Below, one piece after another: positions 9,135-38,023 of a stretch of DNA of 64,000 nt. The first letter of the stretch is position 1. Every line of letters begins with the position of its first letter. The notes under the pieces were generated by a model. That model was not told the DNA's origin and did not search any database. It was given only the letters and a program-made list of their open reading frames with translations. Both the position numbers and the translations under genes were made by a program. Source of the DNA: Rhynchopus sp. YZ270_cl-10. Its lineage: Eukaryota. The DNA lies in NCBI GenBank assembly GCA_964035575.1, contig OZ037835.1, forward strand, positions 620,001 through 684,000, read 5' to 3'.

Positions 9135-10185
9135 TACAATATTTTATGTACTAAAATATTTCCTAATATATGTCCCAAGACTCACTGGAAAGTGTCATGT
9201 CCCCGAATATAAGAATTGAAATCACTCCTACACCTACTTTTCCTTTTTGTTGTTTCCCCACCCCCCGCAAACAATAAAAACAATAAAACAATGAAGACAA
9301 AAGGGAGAGGCTATGGTGAAGTGCACACACCTAGACCTGTCGGTGAAATGTGGCTCTACTCCAACCCGCCCCAGAAAGGAAAAAAAGGAAGGGAGATGGG
9401 GAACGGTGTTCAATTTCCTTTTTAGCATTTGCGTGGAATCATAAAACAAAAAAACCTTTTATGGTGTGATTTTCCTAAGAATTAGGTGTAAATTGGGTAC
9501 TTCTTGGGTCCTTCTAGGGTATACACCCTAGCCCTATACAGCCACACCACTTTTGTTACATTTTTCCAGCGTTTTCTGCACAGTAGAATTCTTATTTTCT
9601 GTGTCGTGTAGGATTTTGCCTGGGTACCTAGGTACCTGGGCACCAGGTGCCTGGCACCCAGAATACCTGGGTACCAGAAAGCGATAGGTACTACAGTGTA
9701 CAGTGTATAAAACCATAAAACAGTGTATTTCTGTGATTCAAACACTGGAAAAATGTAACAAAGCACTGTTTTCCCCTCGAGAACAGCGGTTTTCTCTCGA
9801 GAAAAAATAGCTTTTTTTTTTTTTTTGAAAATTTGGTTGTATTAGTGTAGCCACCCTAGTCCAGGCTAGAGTGTGCTCCACTATATATTATTTTTTTTCC
9901 TTTCCCCAAAACGCCCAGAAATGGATGTCAAAGGAAAAGCCCTTTTGCCTGAAGTACAGGTGGTGAAGAGCACAGGGGAAAGAGGGGGGGGAAACAAGCC
10001 GGGGGAGGGGGATACGCAGAACGCGCAACTTTCCACGAGGGTCTCGAGCATTTTTGCCTAATACGATGCGTTCACTAGGATATGTCTAACTCTTTGTATT
10101 TGAATATCTGCTGAGATCTTCCACACTGCCGATCTCATTCTCACCTGCGTCAACGAAATGTTGTATTCTTGCGCCTTACAACCCC

Positions 10186-12684
10186 TTAGCAGTGGATGGG
10201 CACTGTGTCACCGGAAGCAGTGTTCAGGACACGCATGAGTGTTGCGTCGGCACCACACTGCGCTGTGATCTCTTTTTCCTCACCTGCGACGAACGCGGCC
10301 CAGTAGTCGGGACTCCAGCCCCACATTGCCTCTTCGTCTTCGTCGAAGTCGCGGTTGTCTACACAGACCTGGTGCACCGTCACAGAGGTGGTTCCTCGCA
10401 GGCGGCTCACGTCGCACTTTAGCACCGGTCGTATCACCGTCGAGTATGGGACGTCCGCCTGCAGTGAGCAGTACAGCGCAAACACATTCCGGCTCACGCT
10501 CTGGCGGAGGAGGTGTCCTGCCACACCCAGGCACGCGCCGATGCTTGTCATGAAGCGCTTCCCGGCTGTGCCCAGTGTGGCCGCGTACACCGTGCCTGTG
10601 CACAGCCCAACTAACACAGGGCTGTCCGTGTAAGCCCACATAGTCGATTTGTGAAGCAGCTTGCAGAAAACAAAGGAAGCCTGTGTGTGGTTCATGCTGC
10701 GACGCGAAATGTTCCAGCCCGCAACCACGTGAGACCCGAAGAGTGCTGTGACAGAGCCTTCCGTCCGTTCGAGCGAGCTGATCACCTTCCCCAGCTTCTC
10801 GTTTGCGCTGCCGATGGGGTCTGCTGACGTCTCACTGAAGCGCAGTTCGATGCGTGCGACTGTTGCTAGCTTTCCCTCGCAGTCTTGGTGTTGTGTGTGT
10901 TTGCGCTCCCTGATGGACGTGCGCACAGAGCCCGCGGAACACACTGACTGCTTTGGGGCATAGACAGCTTCAGAAGGACGCCGCAGTGCTTCCGTGACAG
11001 CCTTCTCACGCCACGGCATCGATGCGGGAATGACACACACCAAAGACACCTTCTGGCCCACACCCTTCAGCTCAATGTCTCCCATCGCAACGCTGAGCCC
11101 GCTGTCGCCGCACGCCGTCTTCCACTCGTCGTAGACTGCCTGTGGTGCTGCCACCGACCCAGCAACACAACGTGACTCAATGCGTGCTGCAACGTTCACC
11201 GTGGGGCCGAAGTAGTCTGCTCGCCCTGTGATGCCGTTGAACTCCACACGCACGTCGCCTGCATTCACACCGATGCGCAGCTGCATGCCGACCTTGCTCT
11301 CCTTCTCTGTCTTCGGTTGGGTGAAGTCCACCAACTCCTGCGGCCACGTGACCCCGTACATCCGCTCCTGCACAAGCACGCCAAAGCTGACTCCCTCCTG
11401 TGACGTGTCGAAGGACACCATGAAGGCATCCCCGATCGTCTTCACCTCGTACCCGTTCAGTTCAGCAATGCAGTCGCGGACGGCCTTGTTGTGCAGACGC
11501 ATGCCCTTCGCCATGCCCTCGGGACAGCCCTCCCACAGCTGCGTCGACGCCACAATGTCTGTGAACACGATGGCAGCACGGCCGTACACTGCACCGGGTG
11601 CGTCTGTGCGTGTCAGTGCGACCTGGTACGCATCCTCCTCAAGCACCTCCTCGCTGTCTTCCTTGAGCGACGCGAGGAAGGCTTCTGGGATGAACTGCTT
11701 GATGTCCCGCAGCAGGCCGATGATGCGCGCAAGCGACACCTGCACACGCGACCTTGGCTCGCGCTCCAGGTGCTCGAGGTTGTCCAGATCCATCACGGCG
11801 ATTGCGTCCATTGCCTCCTCCGCGTCTGCACGCACCTTCTCCATGTCTGCCACCAACCCTGACATGTAGTCCGTTACAAACATCCCGATCCACTTATCAA
11901 CAACACACAGCGTCAGACAGGTACGGTAATGCTGGTGCTCATTGAAGATGAAGGATCCTATGTTCATTGTGCTGAAGGCAGCAAACAGGAGGCACGCGAC
12001 CACGGCACCTGCAGGACTCACCCCGACGCACACACGCAGCGATGCGACACCACGCCTCAACTTCCACGTCTCCCAGAAGAAGCATGCGCACAGCACCAAC
12101 GAGAACACAGTGTTGTACCCCACAATGGAGATGCTGGCCATGGGCTTCACCTGCAGGAAGCACGTATTCGTTGCACTGATGTGCGCATCGACGTTGAACA
12201 ACAGGATCAACCCTACCACCAGGTACGGCACCATGAAGCCCATCATCAGCAACCAATGGCGGTCCTTCCACCTGGAGAGCGGGGCGTCACGCGAGGCGTC
12301 ACGCAGAATACGAAGCCGCTCCACCAACAGCGTCACCAGGGCAACCTTCCCACCTGCGTAGAAGACAGAGCAGGAGTACACTGCAAGGTGGCAGAGCCCC
12401 AGGTACGGCTTGTCCAGCGCAATAGCCGTCGAGGTGACCAGTACAAAGCAGAAAACAGCCAGGTACACCACCCACACCAGCACGCCCATATACGTTGTGC
12501 GGTCGCCGCTCGTCCCGGCAGCACGCTCGCCCATGAGGTACGCTGTCGTAGCCATCATCATCAGGTGCACCGTCTGCACAGCAGCGTCGGTCTCGCCACC
12601 TCGGTACAGCGACATCCCGATCGCAGAAAAGACAAGAGTCATCAGCGCACGGCGGAAGTACGCGTAGAACACAGCCGACGGCAT
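10186..12684 (-). CDS. 7TM GPCR-like receptor fused to a class III adenylate cyclase plus a degenerate second cyclase domain (832 aa)
   Basis: 7-8 hydrophobic segments in aa 1-275. Cyclase motifs AIVFTDIVASTQLWE, YEVKTIGDAFMV, LRIGVNAG and DYFGPTVNVAARIES keep both metal Asp, the ATP-specifying K/D and the N/R residues. The C-terminal cyclase-like repeat lacks them. Confidence 0.92.
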   Translation of the reverse strand: MPSAVFYAYFRRALMTLVFSAIGMSLYRGGETDAAVQTVHLMMMATTAYLMGERAAGTSGDRTTYMGVLVWVVYLAVFCFVLVTSTAIALDKPYLGLCHLAVYSCSVFYAGGKVALVTLLVERLRILRDASRDAPLSRWKDRHWLLMMGFMVPYLVVGLILLFNVDAHISATNTCFLQVKPMASISIVGYNTVFSLVLCACFFWETWKLRRGVASLRVCVGVSPAGAVVACLLFAAFSTMNIGSFIFNEHQHYRTCLTLCVVDKWIGMFVTDYMSGLVADMEKVRADAEEAMDAIAVMDLDNLEHLEREPRSRVQVSLARIIGLLRDIKQFIPEAFLASLKEDSEEVLEEDAYQVALTRTDAPGAVYGRAAIVFTDIVASTQLWEGCPEGMAKGMRLHNKAVRDCIAELNGYEVKTIGDAFMVSFDTSQEGVSFGVLVQERMYGVTWPQELVDFTQPKTEKESKVGMQLRIGVNAGDVRVEFNGITGRADYFGPTVNVAARIESRCVAGSVAAPQAVYDEWKTACGDSGLSVAMGDIELKGVGQKVSLVCVIPASMPWREKAVTEALRRPSEAVYAPKQSVCSAGSVRTSIRERKHTQHQDCEGKLATVARIELRFSETSADPIGSANEKLGKVISSLERTEGSVTALFGSHVVAGWNISRRSMNHTQASFVFCKLLHKSTMWAYTDSPVLVGLCTGTVYAATLGTAGKRFMTSIGACLGVAGHLLRQSVSRNVFALYCSLQADVPYSTVIRPVLKCDVSRLRGTTSVTVHQVCVDNRDFDEDEEAMWGWSPDYWAAFVAGEEKEITAQCGADATLMRVLNTASGDTVPIHC

Positions 12685-12796
12685 GGTGTTGTGTATCGTA
12701 TAGTGGTGGGTGGGGTGGGATTAAATCTGTTGATTCTAAAAACGGAGGAGGAGGGGATTTTCGATAAATAAATATTTTTTTCGAATAGATAAAAGC

Positions 12797-13671
12797 CAGG
12801 CCTTTTGCTAACCATCATGCCATCATGCCACGTTTTTGGGCGTTTTTTATTTTTTTTTCCATCATGCCACCATCATGCCACGGGGGGTGGTTGGGCAGGG
12901 CTTTCGCTCTGCATCACCTGGGGATTTCCCCCCCCCCCCAGATGGCATGATGGCATGATGGCATGATGGCATGATGGCATGATGGCATGATGGCATGATG
13001 GCATGATGGCATGATGGCATGATGGCATGATGGCATGATGGCATGATGGCATGATGGCATGATGGCATGATGGCATGATGGCATGATGGCATGATGGCAT
13101 GATGGCATGATGGCATGATGGCATGATGGCATGATGGCATGATGGCATGATGGCATGATGGCATGATGGCACCTTAAAATTTTTCTGCTCGCTGCGCTCG
13201 CGGAGGTATACCTCAAAAAAAAATCCCGCTCGCTTCGCTCGCGCTGTACGCTATTTTCTTCCTGCCTACGGTGCCATTTTACAATGTCTAAGGGGATTCC
13301 CTTGCATTTTGCAGCCAAAAATGAAACTTGACCCAAGCTGCAAAAATTTGACCATTGTTATTTCAAAGTGACCCAACCGTTGCAACAGCCCCTGCTTCTG
13401 GAAGACGTATTGATTTTGTACGGTTAGTGTACGTAAGGCGCAAGACCAAGCACCGTTAATAAAGGAATAGATTCCGTTTTTTTTTTTTGTTATCTCGCAA
13501 AGCTGACCCTTCGCCTCTCACCCTGTGGCTGGCAGGGAGGCGCGCGCGAAGCGCGCGACGACCGCTTTCACCAGGTGGGAAAGCTCGGAATGTACTTTTT
13601 TTCCAGGAAATTATTTTTTTTTGACCATCATGCCATTCAGGGGGAAAATCCCAAAGTTTGCAAAAGGCCTG
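12797..13671. mobile_element. hAT-like non-autonomous element with an internal GATGGCAT array
   Basis: TIR CAGGCCTTTTGC/GCAAAAGGCCTG; GATAAAAGC duplicated at 12788-12796 and 13672-13680; subterminal CCATCATGCCA motifs at both ends. Confidence 0.85.
12941..13171. repeat. (GATGGCAT)n octamer array, about 29 copies
   Basis: Perfect tandem repeat read directly. Confidence 0.97.
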
Positions 13672-13699
13672 GATAAAAGCAATAAATTACTTTTTATTT

Positions 13700-13851
13700 C
13701 ACAGCGGACTAGTCAGGGGGACTACTAGTGGAACTACTAGTCGTAACAACTAGTGCTAAACTGGTAGTGTTACTGGTGTAACACTAGTTGTAAAACACTA
13801 GTCATTTGGACCAGTAGCACTACTAGTAGTCCTCCTGACTAGTCCGCCGTG
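13700..13851. mobile_element. 152-bp MITE with CAC...GTG ends and a 2-bp TSD (CMC-like)
   Basis: TT|CACAGCGGACTAGTCAGG...CCTGACTAGTCCGCCGTG|TT; many internal ACTAGT motifs; termini resemble those of 58041-61521. Confidence 0.8.
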
Positions 13852-14184
13852 TTAAAACAAAGGAGGGGGGGGGGAATCGCGAATGGAAAAATGGGGGAAG
13901 AGATTGAAATTGCTGAACGCTTTCCTCACCCTCCTAACCCAGATCACACCTTGGTGGCAGACCATGGGTTTCTATCTGAAAGTGCGGAAGGAGAAAGGAG
14001 GAGGGGGGTCACACAAAATAATAAAAACACCCCCGTTCGTCTTTTGTTTAGTTGGTACGCTACCTCTGTAAACCCTTAGCCTGAAGTACAGATATGAGGT
14101 GAGTGCACAATAAAGGAGGAGGGAGAAATAAAAAAGTCTCAGACGAGATTTGAATTTAATATTTCTCCAGCGAATGTGCACGTA

Positions 14185-15140
14185 CAGTCCCGCCTATAAT
14201 TAATAGCGTTTTATTTTATAAAATCCTAATTAGTGACGTTCTAATTTATAAAGTCGTGAATTAATTTATTTTTCGGGGGGGAATACTAAGTTATCGAATT
14301 TATTTTCCCCGGCGGAGCCGAAAAATTTTTTTTTGCCTGCACAAGTGACGACGGGTTTGTGCGGGTTCTGTTGGAGGAATATGTGGAAAAGGAGGTGTGT
14401 AATCAGTGATACACGGAGGTAAAAAACGGTGCGGTCGGTGGTGGCTGTGCGGACGCGCATGCCGTTCACCTCCATGGTCTATTTCGCCCACGAGATGAAA
14501 AGACCTGGCACCAGGAGTCGGTTACACCGAGGCGTGTCCCGCCTCGTCTTCACCACCATCCCCCTCGCAAGCGACGCAAATCGGTTGGCTGTTGAACTTG
14601 CGGGTCATCCCCGTAAGGTTGAGAAACCTCTTCAGCTCCTCGGGGTTCAAAAGAGCCTTGGGTGAAGTACGAACCGCTCTCTTTTTGTGGGTTTTGTACT
14701 TGGAGATGGTGGGAACAGAAATATGGCGTCCTGGGTGAGCGTCATTCCACCACGCCATCACATCAGCGTGCGGTCTGTCATCAGTGCCTGCGTCCGCCGA
14801 TGAACGGTGAGGCTGGCACTTTCAACTTCTCTGTCATCCGCCATGGCGTTGTCTGTGATGGTGACAATCTCCGGGGCGGTGAGGACAGCCTGCTCGACGA
14901 TGGTCACATCTTCGGCATATTTCTTCATTTTTTCCGTTCATTCCGTGGTGGAGACAGACATGATGGTCGGAGAGAAAGATGCAGATAGTCTTGTAGAGAT
15001 TCAGACTGGGATTTGGGTGGACAAGCTGTAATTTATAAAATCTTAATTAGTGACGTTCTAATTTATAAAGTCGCTAATTAAATATTTTCAGATTTGGTCG
15101 AATTTATAAATTAGAAATTCACTAATTAGAGGCGGGACTG
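14185..15140 (-). mobile_element. Tc1/pogo-like element with a decayed internal ORF
   Basis: TA|CAGTCCCGCCT(A/C)TAATTA...TAATTAGAGGCGGGACTG|TA; repeated TAATTAGTGACGTTCTAATTTATAAAGTCG; minus-strand remnant VMAWWNDAHPGRHISVPTISKYK weakly resembles a CENP-B/pogo N-terminal HTH. Confidence 0.75.
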
Positions 15141-15257
15141 TAAGTGCAAAATCGTGATAAGATGAAAACGGAACAAAATTGAGCACCGCGCTCCGACTTT
15201 TCCTTTTTTGTGTTTCCCCACCCCCGCAAAACAATAAAGACCATGAAATATTGCCTC

Positions 15258-15953: not shown

Positions 15954-17839
15954 GGGTACTCTCACTTTTTCTTTTGTTTCTTGTCCCCGCCCGCTCGGAT
16001 TTTTCAGGGAGGAAAAAAAAAAAAAGTGCAGGGTTTCCGCCAAGGGGGACCGGGGGGGACCATGGTCCCCCCCAATATTTTTCCCAGAAAAATCCGGATT
16101 TTTACAGGGGTTTGGGGGGGACCATGGACCCCCCCAAGAAAAATGGGGTTTTGGAGGTTGTAGATGACCCCCCGTGGTCATGCGACCCCACCGTGCCGAG
16201 CATTTGGCTCGCTGTGTCAAAAGAAGTGGAAGAAAAGGGGGGTGGTGCAATCTTTTTAAAAAAGGGTAAAAGTAGCGTACCGTGCGCCTGCGGCGCTGTG
16301 TTGCTAGCTATGTGATATTGATATACTTCCATCGATACTTCCGTGCATTGCCCCTTTTTCTAAGGAGGCTTCGGTGCAAGCGACGGGTAGTTATTACATG
16401 TTCCCACTGCAGCACTGTAATGACTGTAGCACCATACAATAGAAAAAGCAAACACCATCACCCTCCACTCTCACAAGACCCCTTACCTTGTTAAGCTTCC
16501 ACCCCCGACCTCCGAACGAACCACCTCTACCAGACACACAGCTGTGAAGCTTGACATGGCTGCTATCAAACCTGGTGCACCCTTCGCCTCTCCACTCTGT
16601 GGTCTGCAGGGAGGCGCGCGCGGAAGCGCGCGACGACCGCTTTTGCGGGGAGAAAAAATTTTTTTTGGGGGGTCTTTTTGATGGTCCCCCCCAATTCCTG
16701 AAACCCCAAATCCTGGCGGAAACCCTGTAAGTGGGCAAAAAAAAAAAAGTGTACAGGGTTTCCACCAAGGTGGACCGGGGTGGGACCATGTCCACCCCAT
16801 TATTTTTTCCAGAAAACTCCGGATTTTCACAGGGTTCTACATGGTGACCCCCGAGAAAAATGGGGTTTGGAGGTTGATGACCCCCCGTGGTCATGCGACC
16901 AGAGCATTTGGCACGTTGTAGCTGGGCAAGTAGTGGAGTTCATCCTCGGGTGTCTACACTAATACAACCAAGTTTTCAAAAAAGGAAAAAGTAGCGTACC
17001 GTGCGCCTGCGGCGCTGTGTTGCTGACTACTGCAACATCCCCACAAGGTAGAGAACTGCACGCTCCAATCTGAGCCCCACGGCGGAGAGCAATCGGCTCG
17101 TGCAATCAAAAGAAAATGGCACGAGTAAAAAAAGTTGGTAAAGTGCGCCTGCGGCGCTGCCTTTTTTCTATCAGTTCTACAGGCGAACACTCGGCTCCCC
17201 TTTACCTTACACTGACGGGTTTTGACCAAAACCAAAAACTTGTCCATTTTGGAAAATTGACCCCACCACACAACGGACGGATTCCGGAAATGCAAATGCC
17301 GGTGTTTTCGGGCACTTTCGTATTTTGACGCCGAGGATCAGGGAGAGAAAATCTGGATTTGGGATTTCCCTACATGGATTTTGACCAAAACCAAGAATTT
17401 GGCCATTTCGGTAAAGTGACCCCACCCTGGCCACCACAGCGCGGACGGGTTCCGGAAATGCCACCCGTGGTACGTGAACACCCACTTTTTTCAGGGGAAA
17501 AAATTGCTTCCAAATGTCGGAATTTTCCGAATTTTCCGGAAAATTTCCAGAATTAGACTGAAAATGACCCTTGTTTACGAGTATGGGTTCATATTTTGCA
17601 AAAATTTAAGTCACTGAAATTTTGTCCATTTTTCCGAATATCCCCCACCACAAGCCGGGATTGGCTCGGAACTGCAACAAAACGCCCTCTTGGGCGGAAA
17701 AATACCGCACAGGTTTTTTTTCCCCCTTCACTTTTTTCCTCCACTTTTTTTTTTTTGCTTCACTTTTTTTTTCCCGCCCGCCCGCTCGGATTTTTAGGAA
17801 ACCCAAGGACAAGAAACAAAAGAAAAAGTGTGAGTACCC
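15954..17839. mobile_element. PIF/Harbinger-like non-autonomous element
   Basis: TTA|GGGTACTC(T/A)CACTTTTTCTTTTGTTTCTTGTCC TIR of about 33 bp ...AGTACCC|TTA; 3-bp TTA TSD. Confidence 0.85.
16029..16727. mobile_element. hAT-like MITE nested in 15954-17839, followed by a diverged partial copy at about 16754-17025
   Basis: TIR CAGGGTTTCCGCCA/TGGCGGAAACCCTG; TSD not clean. Confidence 0.7.
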
Positions 17840-20099
17840 TTACCCAGAAAAAACACGGGTCAGGAAAGATCTTTTGTCTTTTTTCGAGAATCTCGGGAGA
17901 AAAAAAAAAAAATCAAGATTTTCAGGATTTTTGTCTTTTTTTTTTCAGGATCTCTCGAGATCTTTGAGATCTTTGAAAAATCCTGAAAAATCTTAACGTA
18001 CACTCTCTGTTGATTCTAAAACGGGGGAGGGTAAAAAAGCGCGAAAGGTAAATTGGGGAAGAGGTTGAAAAGTTGGAACGCTTCCTCACCCCAGATCACA
18101 CTACAATACAAAGGTTTGGGTTTGAATAGGGTGGGTTCTTCTGACGATGAAACCTACTCCTTTCTAAACTTCTTCTTCTTTCCTCTTTTTTTTTTTTTTT
18201 TTTTTTTGAATAAATAAATAAAACTCCTCTCGAATTTGTTCAAGATGGAACTGAGAGAAAGAAGAAACCCCAAACCCTCCCAGACCAAACGGTCTAACCT
18301 GTTGTATTGACATAGTGTGGGGGAGAATGAGGAGCACAAGAATCGTCTTCGCGCATACTAAAAGATTTCCTACGATATGTCACAAGTGTCATGTCACCGA
18401 AAAATCTTAACGTACACTCTCTGTTGATTCTAAAACGGGGGAGGGTAAAAAAGCGCGAAAGGTAAATTGGGGAAGAGGTTGAAAAGTTGGAACGCTTCCT
18501 CACCCCAGATCACACCCAGGACCCTTGGGACCCTCAAGGGACGCTACGCGAAAAAACTCTCTGGCCCGAAATTGTTCTCTGCGGCCGCAATAAATAGAGT
18601 AACTGCGTAACTGTCTCCTTTCGATGTAAGGATTGACAAAAAATTGTAATGACCCGAAGTCGCACGTGCTTTGTCACTCTTCTTAGATATGTTTTTACAA
18701 TGCAGCAACTGCATAGGATCCCACAAGGGCATTGTTCAGATGATGTAATTTTACCCCTGACAGAAAATTTAGGCACCTACGTTGTAGTGTTCGTGTAAAG
18801 CGGGTGCGTGAGAGAGTGGTCGATGGTCGTAGTCTATGAGTCCGGGTGCGTCAATGGATCGAAGGCCCCTGAGGAGGAATGGCGTATGCGGGGAATGGGT
18901 ACTGGACCCCAAAAAACTTGCAGGGCCGTTGAAGATTGTTGAGATAATTTTTGTAGGATGAGGTCTTCATAAGACGCGGCTCGTCGGTGGATCTTAAAAC
19001 CCCCTCTCTTACCTATCGATTTGGCGAAGATCCCAAAACTAACTGGGTGGTGCTTAAAAACGGTCTGTGTGCAGGCCACGTCACCCATTTCAAGTCAGGC
19101 AAACTTCAAAGATAATTACGTGTAGTACGTGGCAATAGTGGGACGTCCAAGAAGTAGGCAATCATATGTGGATATGTGGAAGGGCCGCTACGTACTTGGT
19201 GAATAAGAACCAAAGAAGGGCGATGTTACCTTTAGTCTTTAAAATGAGACTAGCTTTAAATAGCACGCACCATGTATTCCCTGTAAACAAGTGTGTTCTG
19301 TCACCAGTTGCCTCTCTTGGAAGACTACAGTCCAGGTTGCCTCTATTTAGCTATGGTTAAGAAGCTTGCCTAGTTCTGCAAACGGCGTCGAGTAGTCGCT
19401 GTTGTGCGTCGGGTGCGCTTCCTCGGGAGCGGTTCGTCTACTATTTCGATGTTCCTGCGCGGTGGAGCAGAGGGCTCTCTCTCTCGTCTTCTTGTTGCTT
19501 CCTGCTGACCTTGCTGTTGTACAGCGTCGGGGCACTCCGCGAACCGCCCCCAGCTTTGACATCTTCTTTAGACACTGTTGTCTTCCACCTCACCCTGCGT
19601 ATCAATCTTCAGGCCTTCAAACAATGGAAGTCTCTCTCGGAGGGCTTTCAATAATTGACTCTTCCTGAGGACTTCAGACAAAAGGTTGCCTCGTATCGAG
19701 GAAATTACGGCACTGTTCCGGTCAACAAAAAGTTTCCTCAGTTTGAATAGTGGCTTCTTATGGGGGACGTCAGTCAAATAATTACAGCATCGGCAGTAGG
19801 GTCACCACAAGTATGTACCCCGCATTTAACGTAACGTGCTTGTATCCTCCAGCCACGGGGAGGTCCTCGAAGGCGTCGGCCGTGGTCGCGTGCAGGTTGA
19901 CGCCTCTGGATATCACTGAAGTAGGTGGGCTCTTGTGGAGCCGTTGCTGTTGGTGTCGATGATGTGCACGGAGGCAGATAAGCGGCCCCCGCAACTGAGT
20001 GGGAAGGTGTAGTGCCTGGTAATTTCATGTTGCAGACACCGTCGGAGTGCTCACCCCCGTTTTCATGCATGTCTGTGTAGTAATGGTAGTATAGTTGTC

Positions 20100-20765
20100 T
20101 CCAAAAGGTGCTCTGTTGCAGAAGAGGCGGTTGTGCTTGTTCGGTGACTTGGGCAGACCCTGGCGGTCAGACACCTCGGTGATGGTCTCACGGAAACGAC
20201 GCAACGGGCTCGTTGATCTACCACTTGGCACAGCCAAGTAGTCTTCCCGAATATCCTTCAGGCAGATTTCCCGACTCCTCAATCGAGCACTGCAGAAGCG
20301 GGTCGGACTTCGACAGACGCTGCAGTCCCTCAACAAACTTGGGTAGGTCGGCATGGGATCCCTCCACAGCGACACGCACAACGGGCGACACACTGTACTT
20401 CAAGTCCTTCAGGGGGTAGCACTCAGCCTCCTTCTCGTCGGTGATGGTCGCCGTCTTCACCATGAAGTTCTCTACTCCTACAAGACCCACAACGTTACCA
20501 CAGGGCACGTCCTCAAAACGGCCTCCTGGTAACATCCCATCATGAGCAGGGTACGCTGGATGTTCTTCACAGCCACGTCCTTCTTGGTTCCTGTACTCGT
20601 AGTATGGTCTCATGATGCGTGCCTTCTGTACGGCCTTGATCTTACCAGAGAAGACCCGTCCGAAAAAACGACGAAACGCCCCTTGTCTACCGCAGGAAAC
20701 ATCTTCGAACGTACATGATCAGGGGTGCGGCGGGGTCGCAGTTCTTTAGTCCCTGGAAGTAGTTG
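20100..20765 (-). pseudogene. EEF2: Frameshifted fragment of translation elongation factor 2 (about domains II-III, into IV)
   Basis: Across frames: YFQGLKNCDPAAPLIMYV, KMFPAVDKGRF, GRVFSGKI, EDVPCGNVVGLVGV, KTATITD, KYSVSPVVRVAVE, DLPKFVEGLQRLSKSDPLLQCSIEESG, EICLKDIREDY, FRETITE, KSPNKHNRLFC. These match conserved eEF2 motifs; several frameshifts. Confidence 0.93.
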
Positions 20766-21433
20766 TTGTTTTTCGGCTTGAAACACCAGAGCCCTCCTCG
20801 GTCTCAAACACTCCGGTTTTCAGCTGGTCCGCACGGTAGAAGGTGCAGAAAATTTTTGACATTCGTACACCTCTTGGAACTTCGATGCACGTGGAATAGG
20901 TCCCAACAACCGCTTGCCATCATCGTTGAAGGAATGTTGAAGCACACTGTCTCGTGAAGTCGATGTTGTAGTTTGGGATGGGAAGAACGTAATTTCCTGT
21001 CGTCTCGTGTCGAAGAACCCTAACGATGGTGCCGAAAAAGATGATGCCGAGACATCTTTGTGTTGAATCCATCTGGGCAGTAAGGCCTGTTGATGCTTGT
21101 CACCGGTGGCCACGCAGGGCAGTCTAGAGGATGTCGCCTTGGAAGTCGAGGGCGGTACCTCCGCAGGCACCTGTTCACCCACAGGATCAGCTCTACGTTG
21201 TTGTTTGCGGGTGTCACGTTCTGTGTACTTGAGTGGGTTTGAGTGGTCAGAAGGGGTGGTTGGAAAAACGGGCGCTGGCTGTCCCCTCTAGGTACTGCGA
21301 GACAAGTGACGGCTCCTCTGGGTGCGGGTGATAGTGATGTACTGTGTCATTGTCGGAAATTTCGATCTGGATAGCACACTTAGGCATCTCCGCGTATCTG
21401 CTGGTCCTCTCGTAAAATGGCTGAAATGGCTGA

Positions 21434-22631
21434 GAAAGTGGTTCATATACCACATATGCCCCATATGACTGCTAAAAGTGGTTCTTATTCCCCATATGTC
21501 TGCGAAAAGTGGATCTTATACCACATATGCCTGCGAAAAGTGGATCTTATACCCCATATGTCTGCGAAAAGTGGATCTTATACCCCATATGCCTGCGAAA
21601 AGTGGTTCTTATACCACATATGCCTGCGAAAAGTGGTTCTTATACCACATATGCCTGCGAAAAGTGGTTCTTATACCACATAGGCCTGCGAAAAGTGGAT
21701 CTTATACCCCATATGCCTGCGAAAAGTGGTTCTTATACCACATATGCCTGCGAAAAGTGGTTCTTATACCACATATGCCTGCGAAAAGTGGTTCTTATAC
21801 CACATATGCCTGCGAAAAGTGGATCTTATACCCCATATGCCTGCGAAAAGTGGATCTTATACCCCATATGTCTGCGAAAAGTGGTTCTTATACCACATAT
21901 GCCTGCGAAAAGTGGATCTTATACCACATATGCCTGCGAAAAGTGGATCTTATACCCCATATGTCTGCGAAAAGTGGTTCTTATACCACATATGCCTGCG
22001 AAAAATGGATCTTATACCCCATATGCCTGCGAAAAGTGGATCTTATACCCCATATGTCTGCGAAAAGTGGTTCTTATACCCCATATGCCTGCGAAAAGTG
22101 GATCTTATACCCCATATGCCTGCGAAAAGTGGTTCTTATACCCCATATGTCTGCGAAAAGTGGTTCTTATACCACATATGCCTGCGAAAAGTGGATCTTA
22201 TACCCCATATGCCTGCGAAAAGTGGATCTTATACCACATATGCCTGCGAAAAGTGGATCTTATACCCCATATGTCTGCGAAAAGTGGTTCTTATACCACA
22301 TATGCCTGCGAAAAGTGGATCTTATACCCCATATGCCTGCGAAAAGTGGTTCTTATACCACATATGCCTGCGAAAAGTGGATCTTATACCCCATATGTCT
22401 GCGAAAAGTGGTTCTTATACCACATATGCCTGCGAAAAGTGGATCTTATACCACATATGCCTGCGAAAAGTGGTTCTTATACCACATATGCCTGCGAAAA
22501 GTGGTTCTTATACCACATATGCCTGCGAAAAGTGGATCTTATACTCCATATGCCTGCGAAAAATGGATCTTATACCCCATATGCCTGCGAAAAGTGGATC
22601 TTATACCCCATATGCCACATATGCCTGCGAA
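21434..22631. repeat. 31-bp minisatellite, about 37 copies
   Basis: Unit GCGAAAAGTGG(A/T)TCTTATACC(A/C)CATATG(C/T)CT, head to tail with no spacers. Confidence 0.96.
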
Positions 22632-23481
22632 TCACGGCGTTCTTCTTCGTCGCGTCCCTCGTGTCGCGTTCACCCCTCCGAGCAAGCTCGAGAAGTGGCC
22701 CATCACCTCCCTCCTCAGCATGGACGGCTACACCCCGCGGAACTCCTTGCGTACGAGAAATGCGCGCTTTCGGATGGCTGTGTGCCTACAAGCCGAAGCC
22801 TACGGCACCAGCCCCCTCACCATCATCGATGTCCCGAAGTCGGCGTTCAAGGATATTGACCTGGACACGCTTCTCGCTGCATCGCAGCAGACGGTGTACC
22901 GTCTGGAGCAAGACGGGGGTATTGTGTTCCGGATCCGTTCCCATCTTCTCACTTCGTAACATGTCCTGTACTTCATTTTTTTTTTTTTTTTTTTTTTTTT
23001 TGAATAAATAAATAAAACTCCTCTCGAATTTGTTCAAGATGGAACTGAGAGAAAGAAGAAACCCCAAACCCTCCCAGACCAAACGGTCTAACCTGTTGTA
23101 TTGACATAGTGTGGGGGAGAATGAGGAGCACAAGAATCGTCTTCGCGCATACTAAAAGATTTCCTACGATATGTCACAAGTGTCATGTCACCGAAAAAAA
23201 AAGGAAAAAAAAGGGAAAAAAGAGAAAAAAAGATGAAAAAGATCTTGAAAATCTTTTTTTTCTCAAAAAAAAGATAAAAAAGATTTTTGGGATTTTGAAA
23301 AATCTTTTTGGGGAAAAAAAAAAAAAAGATTTTGAAAATCTTTTTTTTTTTTTTCAAAGATTTCTCAAGATCTCGAGATTTTTCATGAAATTTCATGGAT
23401 TTTTCCAGGATTTTTCAGGATTTTTTCAGGATTTTCCCAGGATTTTCAAATCTTTTCTCTTTTTTTTTTTCTCCCAAAAAT

Positions 23482-24229
23482 CAGGGCGTTCGCTATCGCC
23501 ATCGTTTTTTCCTGATCGTGGCGAAATGCCAAAAACCCCGAAATTTTCGTTTTTTTACTAGTGCTTAAAATAGGTCAAAAAAAATTTTCCCGCCGGAGAG
23601 AAGTTAGTTCGTGGGGTGAATCCCTGGTACTGAATGGTCAAAAAAAATTTGCGATTTGCGCGTGATCCCTTCCCCAGCACAAGTGATATTACAGCTGAAC
23701 TTTCCTGAAACTAAAACCAGCAAAACGATGGAGAATTTCATCAATCCCCCCTCACTGAGGGTCTCTTTGTGTTGTTTAATCAAACAGATGTACAAGAGAG
23801 GCATCTGTCATATGAGACTTCATCCTTATTTTGATTATTTTCAACTCTCTGCCGTTGAAAGTAGAGTTGACACGAGCAGTGACACCTTCTATAACAGGGG
23901 GTACGGTACACCTTCAGCAGACTGCAGGATTGAGGAGCGAGCGGGAGTGCTGGGGAAACTTCCTCTCACGGCAGGCGGGTTTGCGGATGATTTTGAGTAC
24001 AGTGGACACCCCTCTACGACCCCCCCTCCGGGGGGGTCTACAGGGTGGTGGGGAGAAATCTCTCTCTCTCTTTTTTTTTTTTTTTTCCCCCTTTTTTTAT
24101 TTATTTATTTATTTATACAGGGTTTCGCCCCGGTGGGGCGAAGCCCTGGGGCGAAATAAAATGTCATTTTTTCAGGAAAAGATTTTTTTAACGAAAAAAA
24201 ATATTTTTCGCCCCGGGGCGAACGCCCTG
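23482..24229. mobile_element. hAT-like non-autonomous element
   Basis: TIR CAGGGCGTTCGC/GCGAACGCCCTG; 8-bp TSD CCAAAAAT; the empty site CTCCCAAAAATCTT is present in the 25917-26420 copy. Confidence 0.9.
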
Positions 24230-24461
24230 CCAAAAATCTTTTTTTTTTTTTTTTTTTTCGGGAGAAGAGGATTTTTTTTCTCGAAAAAAAAAAAAAAAAA
24301 AAAGATCTTTCCCGACCCGTGAAAAAAAGAAAAGTTGAAAGTGAAAACTGAAAAATAATTGACTTGGAATACCTTCTCTCGTACAGTGTACGGAGGTGGA
24401 CCTCAACCCTACAGTCCTACATCCATTTCGTGGTTTACATCTGAAAAAATTATTTCATATA

Positions 24462-24598: not shown

Positions 24599-25916
24599 AT
24601 ATACTTTCTTTTCTAAACGAAAAGAAGCAAGCGAAAAATGTACCTGAAAAAGAAACCTTAGGGGTAATGACACACACGGTACGGCAGGAATGCGTCGTGT
24701 ATGTGTCTGGGCCAGGCACGTCTCCAGAATGAGGATGGGGAGTGATCTCAAGAGCGCGTCAAACGCTTTCAGGAAAGTCTGGCAGCGTCCTCAACTGGGT
24801 TTATTACATGAACCCAACAAGCACATATGTGCATCCTCAGTCCTTCAACAAACATGATCGAGCGACTCGTTACTCTTTGCTTGTTGCTTAAAAGACTATG
24901 AAACGGGGAGGGAAAAAATGAGGTTGTTTGTTGCTCGCTTCATGTGTTTTTTTTTTTTTTGCTTCAGACAAATTGGTGTTAGGAAATACCGCCCTAGGAA
25001 TGATTCTGGGGCGAAAACCATTTTGGGACAGAAATATTCTGAGGCGGAACAAAAACTGGGACAATCGAGGGGGGGGGGGGGGTAGGGGGTCCGACTCCCT
25101 AGTAAATGACCGTACAAAAAACTCATTATTAAACTTCTGGTCATCTCCAAGGCAACTGCGGGTGAAAAACACCCTCAGAGTGGGTCACAGGGGGCCTGTG
25201 GGTCGAAAAACGACCCAGAAGCCACCCCAGAATACCAAAAAATGGAAAAAAATAGTGAAAAAACGGCTTTTTTCAGGTTTTGGCCATGTTGGGCAAAACA
25301 GCGATTTTTCAAGAAAAAAACCAAAAAACGGCACATTTTTTGACATCACAAAGCCTCCTTTGGCACAAATATACCCCAAAAGTGGCCTGTGAGTCCATTC
25401 CAACCTGTTTTGGACATATTTGACACTTTTGGAAGTGTTTTTTTGGTGTTTTCACGCTGAAAAACACCCCCAAAAAATCCTTGGACGGTCCTTGGACAGC
25501 ACTGCCACCATTGCTCCGACCACATTCTCGGCCATATTTTTGCTTAAAACCCCCGAAAAAGGGCCCCCGGAACCCCAATCTTTCCAAATTTCCACCTCAT
25601 CCCCACCCAAACACCGCAAAAACACGACAGAAAATCGTCTTAAAAAACACACTTTTTTCAAAAAGGTCGTCAGGCAGGTTCCATAATGGACTTTTTAAAA
25701 AAAGTGTGTTTTTTAAGACGATTTTCTGTGGTGTTTTTGCGGTGTTTGGGTGGGGATGAGGTGGAAATTTGGAAAGATTGGGGTTCCGGGGGCCCTTTTT
25801 CGGGGGTTTTAAGCAAAAATATGGCCGAGAATGTGGTCGGAGCAATGGTGGCAGTGCTGTCCAAGGACCGTCCAAGGATTTTTTGGGGGTGTTTTTCAGC
25901 GTGAAAACACCAAAAA

Positions 25917-26420
25917 CACGGGTCGGGAAAGATCTTTTTTTTTTTTTTTTTTTTTCGAGAAAAAAAATCCTCTTCTCCCGAAAAAAAAAAAAAAAAAAAG
26001 ATTTTTGGGAGAAAAAAAAAAAGAGAAAAGATTTGAAAATCCTGGGAAAATCCTGAAAAAATCCTGAAAAATCCTGGAAAAATCCATGAAATTTCATGAA
26101 AAATCTCGAGATCTTGAGAAATCTTTGAAAAAAAAAAAAAAGATTTTCAAAATCTTTTTTTTTTTTTTCCCAAAAAGATTTTTCAAAATCCCAAAAATCT
26201 TTTTTATCTTTTTTTTGAAAAAAAAAAAGATTTTCAAGATCTTTTTCATCTTTTTTTCTCTTTTTTTCCTTTTTTTCCTTTTTTTTTCAGGATTTTTCAA
26301 AGATCTCAAAGATCTCGAGAGATCCTGAAAAAAAAAGACAAAAATCCTGAAAATCTTGATTTTTTTTTTTTTTCTCTCGAAAAAAGACAAAAAAAGACAA
26401 AAGATCTTTCCTAACCCGTG
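25917..26420. mobile_element. 504-bp AT-rich MITE (intact copy of the 17854-24321 family)
   Basis: TIR CACGGGT(C/T)(G/A)GGAAAGATCTTTT; 6-bp TSD CAAAAA, confirmed against the uninterrupted left arm of the palindrome. Confidence 0.9.
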
Positions 26421-27833: not shown

Positions 27834-28926
27834 GGGGCGTCCCGGGCACGGCGTAATTCAGGTGTAATGGGGTGTAATGGAGTGTAATGGAGGGAATTTA
27901 AACTTTTTGCTTTTTTTGCGCTTTCCCCCCGTTTTTTCAACACGAAAAGTCCAAAAAAGGTGACAACAAAAATTTTTTGGGCGAGTGGAGCAAAAAAAAA
28001 TTTGCCTGGCTGACCATTGCCGAAGGAATTTTGCACTTTTGACCACCACAGATTACACGTTGTTTTACGATTTTTTCTATGCACTTATGCGTACAGTGCC
28101 ACCGGTGTTAAATTTTTACTGGCGTGGCTACATAACCGATTCCCCATGTTTCTACCGTGTTTCTACACAGTACACAGTACACAGTACACAGTACACAGTA
28201 CACAGTACACAGTACACAGTACACAGTACACAGTACACAGTACACAGTACACAGTACACAGTACACAGTACACAGTACACAGTACACAGTACACAGTACA
28301 CAGTACACAGTACACAGTACACAGTACACAGTACACAGTACACAGTACACAGTACACAGTACACAGTACACAGTACACAGTACACAGTACACAGTACACA
28401 GTACACAGTACACAGTACACAGTACACAGTACACAGTACACAGTACACAGTACACAGTACACAGTACACAGTACACAGTACACAGTACACAGTACACAGT
28501 ACACAGTACACAGTACACAGTACACAGTACACAGTACACAGTACACAGTACACAGTACACAGCACTGTACAAGGCAAAAATGACCAAAACAGCTGATGTT
28601 TTGGCCGAATGCCACCCTATCAGGAATATTTTCATGTTTTCACACAAATTTTTTCTGGCCTCAATACCCCCAAACTACACGATTTTCGGTTCCGGCAAAT
28701 TTTTGGAGCACCAAATATCGCGAAAAAATTCAATTTTTTTGGTGTCGTCCGCACATCCCTTTAGCAAAGACCAAAACACCAAGGCGTTGTAATTCATGTG
28801 TAATGGGGTGTAATGGGGCGTAATGGGGTGTAAGTGGGTGTAAGTGGGTGTAAGTGGGTGTAATTCGGTGAAATGGGGTGAAAGTGTGCGTAAGTGGGTG
28901 TTAGTGTGGTACCGCCGGGACACCCC
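27834..28926. mobile_element. Putative nested TIR element carrying the second CACAGTA array
   Basis: GGGGCGTCCCGG vs CCGGGACACCCC; flanks ATATTAT/ATATTAC; TAATGGGGTG-type subterminal repeats; internal similarity to about 8605-8732. Confidence 0.55.
28164..28562. repeat. (CACAGTA)57 heptamer array
   Basis: 399-bp perfect tandem repeat. Confidence 0.97.
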
Positions 28927-29827: not shown

Positions 29828-31966
29828 CTAGTACACACTGTCCCTGGCTGTGAGGGGGGCCACTTCGTAAAGGCCGGATCTGCCTTTGATCGGTTTGGTC
29901 ACGTTTTGGAGTGTGACCGGCAGTGTGGCGTGCTGTGGGGGCTCGTACAGACACCGCACACCCACACGAACCGCCTCGTCGCACAGCGCGGAGCTCCGGT
30001 GCACGGTCGCCCCCATGACAGTCACAAAGCGCTGCTTGCGTGCCCCGACCGTACCGTGCTGCACAGTGCCACTCACCACCGCCATCCCTGCAAGCGGAAC
30101 CCCAGACAGCGCACGCTGCGCAAAGCGGATCGCGTTCTCTGTGTGCGCCGGGGCAGACCGGGTGAGGTTCCACCCTACGTGGACACGGTTCCCTAGCATG
30201 GCGACAACAGTTCCACAACTCTGATCCAAGGCGACCGTGAGGGTGGAGAGGGCGTTGCTCATTGTCTGCATGACCGCAGTGTTGCCTTCTTCACCCACAT
30301 CCACCTCAAGCACCCCTAAGGTCGCTTCAAAGCACCGTGCAGGGGTGAGGGGGAAGCACGCAGACTCCGCTAGGGGAACCCCACCAAGGGAGTTGGTCGA
30401 GCTCGCCCGCGACGCGTTGCCTACAGAACTGCAGTTGGATATGTTGCGAGGCAGTTCAATGTTCAGTGTGTTGGCTGCCACCAGAGGGCGCTGCTTGCGC
30501 CCTGCCAGGGACAGCGGCCACACACAGCATACAAAGGTCGTCCCCGATACACCCTTCAAATCTAGAGCCTCAGAGGCACCTACAACAGCAGAGATCGCAC
30601 CGCACTCTGCAGACCATAGGTCTGTGCGTACTGCCACTGCGCCTGGTGTGCAGATGCTCTCAAGGCGTGACGCAACGTTGACAGTGTGTCCGAAGTAGTC
30701 GATTCTCCCGGTCAGTGTGCTCGAATCTATCGAGACCGGTCCGGAGTTGACACCAATGCGAACGGTGAGGCCGCACCACAGTGCGCCCTGCTTTGCGCAG
30801 ATCGGTGCGTTTTCGAGGAGAGAGGCGGGCCAGTCTGCTTCACGTAGAAGTTCGTGTACACGAAGGCCAAATTCGATACCGTGCTGGGTGGAGGAGAAGG
30901 CGACCATGAAGGCGTCGCCGATGGTTTTGACCTCATACCCGCCGAAGGAGAGCATGGTAGCGCGCATGATGGTATTGTGGATGCGGAGTGCTGCGTGCAT
31001 ACCGTCGGGGGCGTGCTGCCAGATCCATGTGGAGGAACGGATGTCCGTGAACACCACCGTCGCCACCTCGCTCACAACCCCCGGCGCGACTGACATATTC
31101 TGCGCTGTCTGTGTGTCCGCTTCATCAGCCTCCTCAAACAGCGCAGCAGGGAGGTACGGACGGTACTTCCTCAGGTTTCTCTCCATCTGTTTGAGAGATG
31201 CATGCATGCCCTGTGGAAGCTGTGTCTCCGAATCAAGCATGCGCGCCACACCCTCCACGTCGTACCCCGCAAGCAGACCCGCAATCTCCTGCACAACGTT
31301 GATGGTCCGCTCCATTGATGCCTGCTCTGCCGCAGCGTCGCGAGCAAAGCCTCGGGTGACAAGAAAGTCTATCGTCAGCATGGAGCACGATGAGATGAAG
31401 CTCTCCGGAAAGTCCACTGCGCATGGCAGCTCTTCGCAGTCCGTCAGCGCATCGAAGTACGCACGACGTCCATACTCACCCCCCTGCGGCCGCAGCCCAG
31501 GCAGATCCAACAAACCAAATCGAAACGTCTCTTCACATGCCATGATTGCAAACCAGATCACAGTGCAAACAACTACTGCAACAGGGTACATGGACGGCAC
31601 GTCCATGACAAGCATTAAGTCCAAAATGGCGACCTGGAGAGGCCAGTTCGGGGTCAGCACAGTACGCCCATTCAGGTCTGCAACGAGAACCACAAAGCTT
31701 AGAAGCATGAGCGAGTTTGCAACGAAGGCGGGTGGGAGAGCGCGTTTGCACAGCACCATGATGATGACCGTTGGGTAGAAGAATAAGATGCCCACATACC
31801 CGACAAGCATGATCTGCGACTCCATCTGCTGCTGCAACGTCAAGACCGTGCCAGAAAGGACAAACGGCAGCGCGACCACTGCGAAAAAAAAGAAGATGGT
31901 CCGTCGCTGCTGTGCCTTCTTCCCAAGCGTGTTGTCCATGGACAAAGCATCGTGTAGATACCCCAT
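29828..31966 (-). CDS. Multi-pass membrane adenylate cyclase with a degenerate second cyclase domain (712 aa)
   Basis: About 6 TM segments; motifs VVFTDIRSSTWIW, YEVKTIGDAFMV, VRIGVNSG and DYFGHTVNVASRLES are intact. Confidence 0.93.
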   Translation of the reverse strand: MGYLHDALSMDNTLGKKAQQRRTIFFFFAVVALPFVLSGTVLTLQQQMESQIMLVGYVGILFFYPTVIIMVLCKRALPPAFVANSLMLLSFVVLVADLNGRTVLTPNWPLQVAILDLMLVMDVPSMYPVAVVVCTVIWFAIMACEETFRFGLLDLPGLRPQGGEYGRRAYFDALTDCEELPCAVDFPESFISSCSMLTIDFLVTRGFARDAAAEQASMERTINVVQEIAGLLAGYDVEGVARMLDSETQLPQGMHASLKQMERNLRKYRPYLPAALFEEADEADTQTAQNMSVAPGVVSEVATVVFTDIRSSTWIWQHAPDGMHAALRIHNTIMRATMLSFGGYEVKTIGDAFMVAFSSTQHGIEFGLRVHELLREADWPASLLENAPICAKQGALWCGLTVRIGVNSGPVSIDSSTLTGRIDYFGHTVNVASRLESICTPGAVAVRTDLWSAECGAISAVVGASEALDLKGVSGTTFVCCVWPLSLAGRKQRPLVAANTLNIELPRNISNCSSVGNASRASSTNSLGGVPLAESACFPLTPARCFEATLGVLEVDVGEEGNTAVMQTMSNALSTLTVALDQSCGTVVAMLGNRVHVGWNLTRSAPAHTENAIRFAQRALSGVPLAGMAVVSGTVQHGTVGARKQRFVTVMGATVHRSSALCDEAVRVGVRCLYEPPQHATLPVTLQNVTKPIKGRSGLYEVAPLTARDSVY

Positions 31967-34270
31967 TGGTTCTGTGAGGGGTGGTGTTTATGTTTTGGGT
32001 ACGGGGCGGGAGAATAAAATCTGTTCGATAAAAGAAACGCAAGCTTTTTTGCTTTATCTTGTTCAGGGAGAAGTGAGGAGCGTCACAAGTGTCATGTCCC
32101 CGAAAAAAATAAGTCGATGTAAGTGCAAATGCTCGTGTACCAATTGCTCCGCAGGTTATCGAACCGCGGAGAGATTGAAAAGACCGTGTACAGAATTGTG
32201 CGAAACAGCAAATGGATTGAATCACCGTACACTGCCGCCAAACACCTAACAAAAAAAAATGAGAATGCACTATCCAGAAAAACTGCTGCTCATCGTCGTG
32301 GGTTCGTTTACAGCTACGGCTTGTTAGATCAAAAAGCACGTCAACATCGAAACTCATTATCGCAAACTTTCCCTTTCACCTTCACACAAACGTCATCATC
32401 CACGCCGAGGCTGGGGCGGCGCAGAGGGGTTGTGTTGCGAGAACAGTGAGTTCTCTCCTCCGCAGGTGAGTCTGCTGACACCGTTCGTGTGCATGTATCG
32501 TTGGTTATTGGAGGGACGTTTTTGATGATGGGTGTGCCGGAGTTGCATACTGCACTTGACTGGGAGCACAGTAGCTCGCCAGGTGCTTGATGTGGCTGCG
32601 CCCTGCACATATGACTGCCACTGCTCGTCGGACTCAAGCTGCGACACATGCAGTGGTGCACCTACCGACAAGCTGCGCGCCGAGCCCTGCACCGGCGACA
32701 CCTTCACACACGACAGCACCTGCGGGGATGGCAGTCCCTACATACTGTCGAACCACTCCTGCTGGGTGAAGGACGACTGCTCGGAGATCGACCTGACGTC
32801 CCCGCACACCCACAAGACCGATGGCAGTGTCAAGACCACGATAGGTGCGGTGGTGCTGTCGCCGTGCGTCTTTGTGTATTCTTTGTTGGGCATCTTTTGT
32901 GGGATGTCGTGAAGCGGTGCGCTGTGTCTTGTCCAGACTGTGGGCTTTGTGAGTGGCTTGGGTCCTGTTGGCGTGGACGGTGTAGCGGTGGTGGTGGTGG
33001 TGGTGGGGGCTTGCACACCAGGACGAAGCCTTCCGAAGCTACAACACCAACGGGTACGAAGACGTCGAACACAGTGCCGAGGCTTCAGCACCACCCGTAC
33101 ACCAGCGGGCCACCACACAAAGATCACCAGAGCATACCATCCTGCGTCTTTTAACACATCCGACATCTTTTCAAAAAAAAAAAAAAGCTGTGTGTTTTAT
33201 CAGAAATTGTGTGAAAGATTAAAGTGAAAGAGTTGGGGTGGAGCAGACACAAAGTTTTATTGTTCACTTTGTCAAAATCTCTTTGTTTTTCTCTTTGTCT
33301 ATTTTTCCTGCATTTTTTATTCTCTTCTTTGTACTTTCTTTTGTTTTGGTTGTTGTTAGATAAGCTCAATCGCCTATCGAGTTCTGTGAATAGCACGGAA
33401 CTCCTTTTCATGTGTATCCATGGAAATCAGTATCATATGTGATACCGGGGTCAGAGAAAAATAAAGGGTGCGGAGGGTGGGAAAATTTTTGAAAAAAGGT
33501 GTCGTTTGAGAAAAAACAAACAAACGGATGCGCTGTGTGAAAAACGAGTGTTTCTCTGCGCGTGATATTTTGTGGGGAAGAATAAAACATTATGAAAAAA
33601 GCTCGTTGCGTTCCCACTATCGTTTCCGCTGCGCTCTCACTAGTGTTCCCACTCCATTCGGTTTTCTCTTACTTAACAAAAAAATAGTGAGTTTCAAGGT
33701 GTTCTCGGTTTAAAATTATTATGCATCCACTTGCCGTTTGGATAAACAAAACAAAGGCGAAAGGGGGTTTGGGGGGAAGAGTTTAATTCTTGAACGCAAT
33801 CCCCACACTCAGTCACAACACATTTCAAAATTCTGGCGTTAATGGATCGCTAGGGTGGGTAAACTACCCAATCCAAAAATTATCGACCCTATTTTCTTAC
33901 AACCTGGTATGGTCATTTCACACCCTCAGCCAACATCACACAAAAAGATCACGTTTTCAAAAACGGATACTCGCATTTGAAGGTACAAATAAGGCTCCAC
34001 TCGGTTCAAAACGTGCATTTTTGAACCGAACGACAACCCTCTCTGAACTCACGGCATTATTTTCTACCCGATTAGTGGAGTAGATATTTGTTATCATCCT
34101 CTGGACGCATTTTCAAAAGAATGGGCGTAAAAAATAAAACCTGAACACTCCATCACACGTGGACACATCGCCTAAGCACCGGGCAGTGTGAATACCTATA
34201 AGAGCAGTAAAAAAAAAAATCGCTGTTATGAACCATAATGACTGGTTCAGATAGCTTCTCCTGTCGCTCT

Positions 34271-38012: not shown

Positions 38013-38023
38013 GAAAAAATGTA

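Follow-up and report, generated by a model that had tools for sequence, protein, structure and literature searches.

The 64-kb window analysed here (positions 620,001 to 684,000 of contig OZ037835.1 from Rhynchopus sp. YZ270_cl-10; coordinates below count from its first letter) contains a 5.2-kb insertion at 17985–23198, built from two direct repeats, A and B, that each occur twice and enclose a spacer and a long body. It interrupts a miniature inverted-repeat transposable element (MITE) with CACGGG terminal inverted repeats (17854–24321), which is additionally split by a second insert at approximately 23483–24227, while an uninterrupted sister MITE on the minus strand (25917–26420) shows the empty site. 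We describe the architecture, junctions, cargo and relatives of this insertion, and weigh its reading as a non-autonomous tyrosine-recombinase (YR) retroelement against the alternatives.

Architecture of the insertion

On the plus strand, the insertion consists of A copy 1 (17985–18101), an 84-bp spacer (18102–18185), B copy 1 (18186–18404), A copy 2 (18399–18515), a body of approximately 4.46 kb (18516–22975) and B copy 2 (22976–23198). Read on the minus strand, which is the strand of the host genes and the one to which repeats and spacer are assigned, the same order becomes a1–body–b1–a2–spacer–b2, with B copy 2 as a1, A copy 2 as b1, B copy 1 as a2 and A copy 1 as b2. Exact maximal matching shows the paired A copies to be identical over 117 of 117 letters (17985–18101 and 18399–18515) and the paired B copies over 219 of 219 (18186–18404 and 22980–23198), the latter including 22 letters of a T-run; B as a whole is 197 bp plus this T-run, which is 22 long in copy 1 and 26 in copy 2. 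BLAST E values of 5e-56 and 2e-111 exclude chance for the repeats. The split-repeat order, which starts 5′ with A1 and finishes 3′ with B1-A2-B2, the pairs being identical, is thus present at this locus, bearing out the two identical copies of each repeat in the order A–spacer–B–A–body–B that an earlier note on this DNA had claimed from the letters alone.

The A–spacer–B unit measures 420 bp. Four A copies diverge from one another at CAGATCAC, so the inner boundary of A is sharp, and the start of the spacer also follows A in other copies (joints 18106, 18113 and 18142 in contigs of sequencing runs). The longest exact match between spacer and body is 10 nt; the spacer is therefore not derived from the body, which rules out local duplication and deletion as the origin of the layout. 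A contains, on its minus strand, a run of pyrimidines that ends in AG; this motif, chosen post hoc, is a likely trans-splice acceptor. SIRE, a euglenozoan repeat compared with this unit below, provides splice acceptors.

Junctions, empty site and target

The same six letters, GAAAAA, mark the left end, the right end and the inner junction of the insertion. The left host/A junction reads CCT-GAAAAA-TCTTAAC (core at 17985–17990), the inner B/A junction GTCACC-GAAAAA-TCTTAAC (18399–18404) and the right B/host junction GTCACC-GAAAAA-AAAAGG (23193–23198), the inner core having the letters that a circle junction would carry. With one GAAAAA retained, the insertion flanks align to the uninterrupted sister MITE, which there reads CCTG-A9-GG. 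The core is accordingly counted once at the empty sister site and three times in the element, a soft count in that the core sits within A-runs; the junction letters are those reported in the earlier note. A true target duplication is absent, and a short core is common to the joined ends and the target. Since the identical six letters also occupy the inner junction, a target duplication would not yield them. Among the window loci described below, A starts flanked by host DNA are preceded by G-A5, G-A4, G-A8 and C-A4, and host-flanked B ends continue into G-A9, G-A7, G-A6 and G-A2. The A-run is clearly the insertion target.

Cargo in the body

Pfam searches of 86 stop-free body frames of at least 28 amino acids gave no match to a reverse transcriptase, an RNase H or a recombinase, and the Gag-like, YR and reverse transcriptase/RNase H open reading frames (ORFs) of YR retrotransposons are lacking from the body. 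The earlier description of an element with no visible enzymes holds to this extent, and needs amending in that the body carries an eEF2 fragment, a slice of a transposase and a 31-bp array. These captured gene fragments are the most distinctive feature of the element.

From left to right, the body comprises a segment (18516–20087) with a coding-like frame at 19373–19801, read with X at its single stop, for which no homologue was found among 661 candidates of 252–2000 amino acids; a decayed eEF2 fragment on the minus strand (20088–20838, approximately amino acids 351–608), running in the a1-to-b2 direction of the element; a segment (20839–21454) with related, deeper sequences in the sequencing runs (joints 20976–21044 and 21167–21270); a 31-bp minisatellite of 37.5 copies (21455–22616); and, on the plus strand and hence antisense to the element, a slice (22642–22935) that corresponds to codons 91–188 of a 530-amino-acid ORF, with 97% identity. 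Of the acidic residues conserved in this transposase, the slice retains just the first. Frameshifts and stops break the eEF2 piece (5, 7 and 11 stops in the three minus frames), and its best single-domain matches are 64–67% identical, the named one being from Diplonema papillatum, with kinetoplastids lower. In the sequencing runs, contigs with 99% likeness span the broken eEF2, so its decay is older than the spread. By eye, the eEF2 piece and a divergent eEF2 paralogue, P0009, which lies on a contig equal in length to that of P0124, have derived-looking residues in common. Rfam gave 9 matches, all far under the gathering score and none of them a ribozyme.

Relatives and copy number

BLAST and nhmmer located six further loci with A-like or B-like ends in the window, all on the minus strand. 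A minimal member (37952–38018) consists of 32 bp from the A start joined to approximately 30 bp of the B end, set between G-A4 and G-A6. A third near-full A, 97% alike, lies at 47032–47145 after G-A8, with no nearby B end found, and an older A...B unit whose A is approximately 82% alike has been swollen by a nested repeat (7197–9207). The remaining loci are old A-like pieces starting at 12726 and 13856 (12726–13949), a remnant of the B end that has lost an internal stretch and runs into G-A7 (32067–32106), and a diverged A-start remnant (54900–54940). Counting the insertion itself, all seven loci have the same orientation, a1 to b2 along the host genes (two-sided P = 0.016, with four weak nhmmer matches of E > 1, two on each strand, excluded). 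The four host ORFs with Pfam support and the other long gene-like ORFs that were picked are all on the minus strand, and one-way gene clusters are described for D. papillatum in PMC10161547. Together with the eEF2 matches, this strand arrangement makes it likely that the host is a diplonemid. The shared orientation along host genes gives the canonical repeat order.

The first of the old A-like pieces ends approximately 50 nt upstream of the first ATG of a cyclase-like ORF (10186–12720), and the copy of the pyrimidine-tract-AG motif found there may serve as the trans-splice acceptor of that ORF. Motifs like that of A occur nine times on the minus strand and not at all on the plus strand of the window, as a post hoc pattern, and include copies at 12726–12751, 24896, 37930 and 53168.

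Beyond the window, a search with the plus-strand piece yielded two clusters among 180 candidates. P0121 and P0123 contain the array and the slice and end in RSHLLTS, the point at which transposase sequence stops in the element; P0124 shares the RSHLLTS ending, begins further upstream in the transposase and is without the array. The three lie on contigs of 1.72, 0.63 and 1.54 Mb (P0121, P0123 and P0124, respectively), and none equals the translation of the window. We also compared 17700–21400 with 4 of 11 listed sequencing runs (two studies), the four small-share runs not being among them and the best run possibly being the window's own source. All 30 bins of this interval are covered in every one of the four runs, and the median depth of body contigs is 3.2, 2.8, 6.8 and 2.6 times that of single short A...B variant joints, after four divergent, deeper contigs (X1 record 5, X2 records 13 and 14, X4 record 28), which likely derive from host eEF2 or its relatives, were left out of the ratio. 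This suggests that the body is multi-copy, with perhaps 3–7 copies, and the RSHLLTS end on three contigs together with the body depth indicates that several copies likely carry the cargo. Relative to the body, A and B reach depths of approximately 24–160-fold and the spacer approximately 13–40-fold across the four runs. At least 10 joint rows (within 18021–18401) connect A or the start of the spacer to differing inner points of B, so that short A...B units form the bulk of the family; such units are common, and their spacers and B lengths vary.

A probable non-autonomous split-repeat retroelement

We consider the insertion to be a young non-autonomous tyrosine-recombinase retroelement of the VIPER/TATE/Ngaro kind that holds captured gene pieces and is mobilized in trans, a reading to which we assign a probability of roughly 65%. 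The family is heterogeneous (the three other B ends in the window read CCCCG where both copies in the element read CACCG, and of 757 records in X1, 331 are at least 99% alike, 264 are 95–99% alike and 162 are 90–95% alike) and the body differs from the X1 contigs at 20 of 2,543 letters, yet not one of the 308 bp differs within the repeat pairs, where independent drift predicts 2.4–4.8 differences and gives a probability of 0.008–0.09 for none. Taken with a spacer that does not come from the body, the lack of differences favours one element whose repeats are re-equalized in each round of copying.

Under this reading, the element would be transcribed along the minus-strand gene cluster of the host and reverse-transcribed in trans by the reverse transcriptase of a partner, with the inner b1/a2 junction templating the joined ends. 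A tyrosine recombinase of the partner would then recombine the circle, at its GAAAAA core, with a G-A-run in the genome, so that the integrated element is bordered by a core on either side. The published model of DIRS/YR integration is such a core-at-junction crossover, in which YR specificity is untested and for which DIRS-1 cDNA is mostly linear (PMC7192593). Machinery of this type exists in diplonemids, given a TATE orthogroup of 281 genes in a supplement row for D. papillatum. Short A...B units could arise by recombination between the paired repeats, as proposed for SIRE and for the solo AB repeats of Ngaro (PMC8547959), or alternatively by the recombinase acting between the three cores. 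The cargo would have been acquired stepwise, eEF2 long ago and the antisense transposase slice recently, and the sense direction of eEF2 would fit template switching onto an abundant mRNA.

Several observations weigh against a YR retroelement. The 6-mer alone is weak, as GAAAAA occurs 137 times on the plus strand of the window, and differences in length among the MITE A-runs soften it further. Tabulating flanks for GAAAA(A), as the earlier note had envisaged, makes the A-run target clear at the window loci and leaves the preceding G without significance: 3 of 4 scorable A starts have it, against a background of 43% (278 of the 653 A-runs of at least four letters in the window). Arm symmetry around the core is equally weak (6 of 13, P ~0.09). 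Neither the 86 body frames nor 135 other window frames of at least 95 amino acids (207 less 72 within known ORFs, arrays or the element) have a Pfam match that would reveal a YR, reverse transcriptase or Gag sharing these ends, or a transposase, and searching metagenome contigs for exact copies of either end motif, the A start or the B end, gave no matches. The full layout stands at one locus only. The depth ratios are rough, in that summed depth is not copy number and the yardstick is the 15 best-supported of 33 joint rows. The 60-bp unit at 37952–38018 and the B copies cut at many inner points mean that the ends alone persist, which a DNA element needing only its tips would fit too; the minisatellite and the antisense slice of the transposase could also have come about with no RNA step.

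The last points lead to the main rival, since a layout with identical repeats is also compatible with a tandem of two very young units. Here, two target-specific A...B DNA elements of Crypton-like character, moved by a tyrosine recombinase with no RNA step, would lie side by side, a short unit and a long cargo unit, the second having gone into the GAAAAA that insertion of the first had regenerated. The abundance of short A...B units with varied interiors (the joint rows and the 60-bp unit) suits such elements, whose target would be regenerated by every insertion. The 4–6-bp direct repeats of Cryptons mirror an identity with the target (PMC13465315), as GAAAAA does here, and CryptonF, whose end is CACCG, recombines with a similar target (10.1101/2022.05.23.493040). 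Cryptons are without long terminal or split repeats, which are present here if the insertion is one element and absent if it is a tandem; their short repeats are matched only in the tandem case. What tells against the tandem is that, in a heterogeneous family, the short and the long unit would have to share the same A and B haplotypes across all 308 bp, that the outcome would be exactly the published split-repeat order, along host transcription, and that the inner boundary of A is sharp, as for a defined repeat. On balance we regard it as unlikely.

Less probable still is a rolling-circle element of the Helentron/HINE type, for which T-run insertion, gene-piece capture, central tandem repeats and head-to-tail tandems would account for what is seen. 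The minus-strand T-run target, the mosaic of cargo in two orientations and the central minisatellite are indeed features of HINEs (PMC4067079), and Helitron ORFs are reported in D. papillatum. Such elements are expected to have 11–15-bp subterminal inverted repeats and a stem-loop near the 3′ end. No subterminal inverted repeat is present here (the best inverted 12-mer pairs 9 of 12 letters and is equalled in 171 of 300 shuffles), and no terminal stem-loop appears in six end sequences, none of which folds better than shuffled versions of itself (z from −0.28 to +1.34), the sole palindrome near an end being weak and imperfect (23168–23189).

Very improbable, finally, are a cut-and-paste element moved with a 6-bp target duplication by the RAG1/Transib-fold transposase described below, despite the 97% identity of the slice to that multi-copy ORF and the 6-bp duplication of the adjoining MITE, and a local rearrangement or assembly artefact: a target duplication fails to explain the inner-junction 6-mer, terminal inverted repeats are missing, by which the carried transposase is rejected as mobilizer and cut-and-paste movement largely refuted, and the body is continuous in contigs of four runs and its chimeric end is found again in three public proteins. 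Penelope-like elements form partial tandems, with a pseudo-long terminal repeat and a tail copied from the body, and carry a hammerhead ribozyme. The present insertion was rejected as one of them, its spacer not being derived from the body and no ribozyme being among the nine weak Rfam matches.

Returning to the non-autonomous retroelement, a more far-reaching version of it, 'Pack-YR', can be put forward tentatively and is, in our estimate, doubtful. It would have an actively amplifying family of non-autonomous YR retrotransposons spread pieces of host and transposon genes in diplonemids, and the recombinase, through the three GAAAAA cores, excise SIRE-like A–spacer–B circles that seed splice-acceptor-bearing short repeats along gene clusters.

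Relation to known elements

The earlier note had placed the insertion with YR retroelements of the PAT/Ngaro/TOC1 type. Identical repeats in a heterogeneous family, a spacer foreign to the body and signs of several body copies support that reading as regards the split-repeat order, the common core and the lack of autonomy, and we depart from it in taking the euglenozoan VIPER/TATE elements and SIRE as the nearest models rather than PAT/TOC1, because the host is likely a diplonemid. VIPER of Trypanosoma cruzi has the order A1...B1-A2-B2, its A and B measuring 173 and 219 bp and each pair being 100% identical (PMC6681497), close in size to the 219 and 117 bp found here; SIRE consists of A2, approximately 30 bp and B2, and its origin is left open (PMC6681497, PMC12278014). 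Common to VIPER/SIRE and the present element are the split-repeat order, the fully identical pairs, a euglenozoan host and the absence of a true target duplication (PMC6681497, PMC12278014). In VIPER/SIRE, the A2–spacer–B2 unit also exists alone in high copy, while no intact solo A–spacer–B could be phased here. Unlike VIPER, the element has no Gag, YR or reverse transcriptase/RNase H ORFs its body is made up of eEF2, the transposase slice and the minisatellite, and its host is likely a diplonemid; the likeness drawn here is one of layout. TATE likewise has split direct repeats and is a YR retroelement present in diplonemids; it targets telomeric repeats in Leishmania braziliensis, whereas the element, which has no coding region, targets a G-A-run within a MITE.

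The A1-[body]-B1A2B2 layout is also that of Ngaro in Cafeteria (PMC8547959; see also PMC9210276 for Ngaro) and of PAT/Toc (PMC4157794), and isolated AB units are scattered in the Cafeteria genome (PMC8547959), to which the short A...B units here may correspond. The Cafeteria Ngaro elements encode reverse transcriptase, RNase H and YR, and the accessible portion of that paper describes no captured host gene pieces; the present element is the opposite on both counts. In carrying gene fragments between mobile ends that are moved in trans, it resembles LARDs, Pack-MULEs and Helitrons (PMC6431247), which use long terminal repeats (LTRs), inverted repeats or rolling-circle ends in place of split direct repeats and a shared core; as carriers of cargo, that review lists LTR derivatives, Pack-MULEs and Helitrons. 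As it agrees with YR retroelements in structure and lacks their coding part, we do not file the element as an autonomous member. It would work like a VIPER/TATE-type element if a partner exists, and its membership awaits that partner.

Neighbouring features of the window

The source of the slice is a 530-amino-acid ORF (P0122, P0125–P0128 and P0129–P0181) with no Pfam match. It has 42 relatives in a 50% library, is present in almost identical copies on four contigs of Mb size and has homologues in a Rhynchopus euleeides transcriptome. It is predicted to fold like a RAG1/Transib transposase: the model has a mean predicted local distance difference test score (pLDDT) of 90.5, a Foldseek E value of 7.5e-8 and a Z score of 16.6 with a root-mean-square deviation of 4.4 over 397 residues, and scores Z = 14.6 against HzTransib and 13.6 against the P element. 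Conserved residues are D118, D196, H263-D264, H380, H384, E399 and E402. Nothing on a RAG1/Transib-fold family in Euglenozoa was found in the literature searched. The two MITEs with CACGGG terminal inverted repeats (17854–24321 and 25917–26420) sit in A-runs, and that at 25917–26420 has a 6-bp duplication, CAAAAA, relative to its empty partner at 25425–25460; such MITEs are possible clients of the RAG-fold transposase.

Host ORFs on the minus strand include membrane adenylate/guanylate cyclase-like ORFs (10186–12720, 29828–31987 and 41654–49669), of which two match Pfam PF00211 and three, tandem relatives, had no Pfam match or were not scanned, and ubiquitin-like/leucine-rich-repeat ORFs (34271–35734 and 53573–54523). 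Long arrays of 7- and 8-bp repeats lie at 7696–8455, 28164–28562, 12941–13171 and 58156–58285. The 7-bp array occurs twice in the window with similar 10-bp repeats around it, and these loci are likely a separate, satellite-bearing mobile family. An element of approximately 1 kb bounded by inverted repeats (14171–15154) contains a short minus-strand ORF without a Pfam match.

Implications

Split-repeat YR retroelements are already known from trypanosomatids. The literature searched, which did not extend to subscription papers (for example, Goodwin and Poulter 2004) or Repbase, gave no account from diplonemids of how such elements end, what they target or whether they have non-autonomous forms, and none of gene capture by a YR retroelement. 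With a young copy whose 6-bp core is sharp and whose empty site is seen in a sister MITE, the integration step, which has never been measured, becomes testable. The element bears on a question left open in PMC6681497, namely whether SIRE-like units are mobile themselves or remnants, and the excision of A–spacer–B circles proposed above would, if true, answer where SIRE comes from. Transport of cargo by such elements, if true, would be a new route for shuffling gene pieces in a very abundant group of marine protists.

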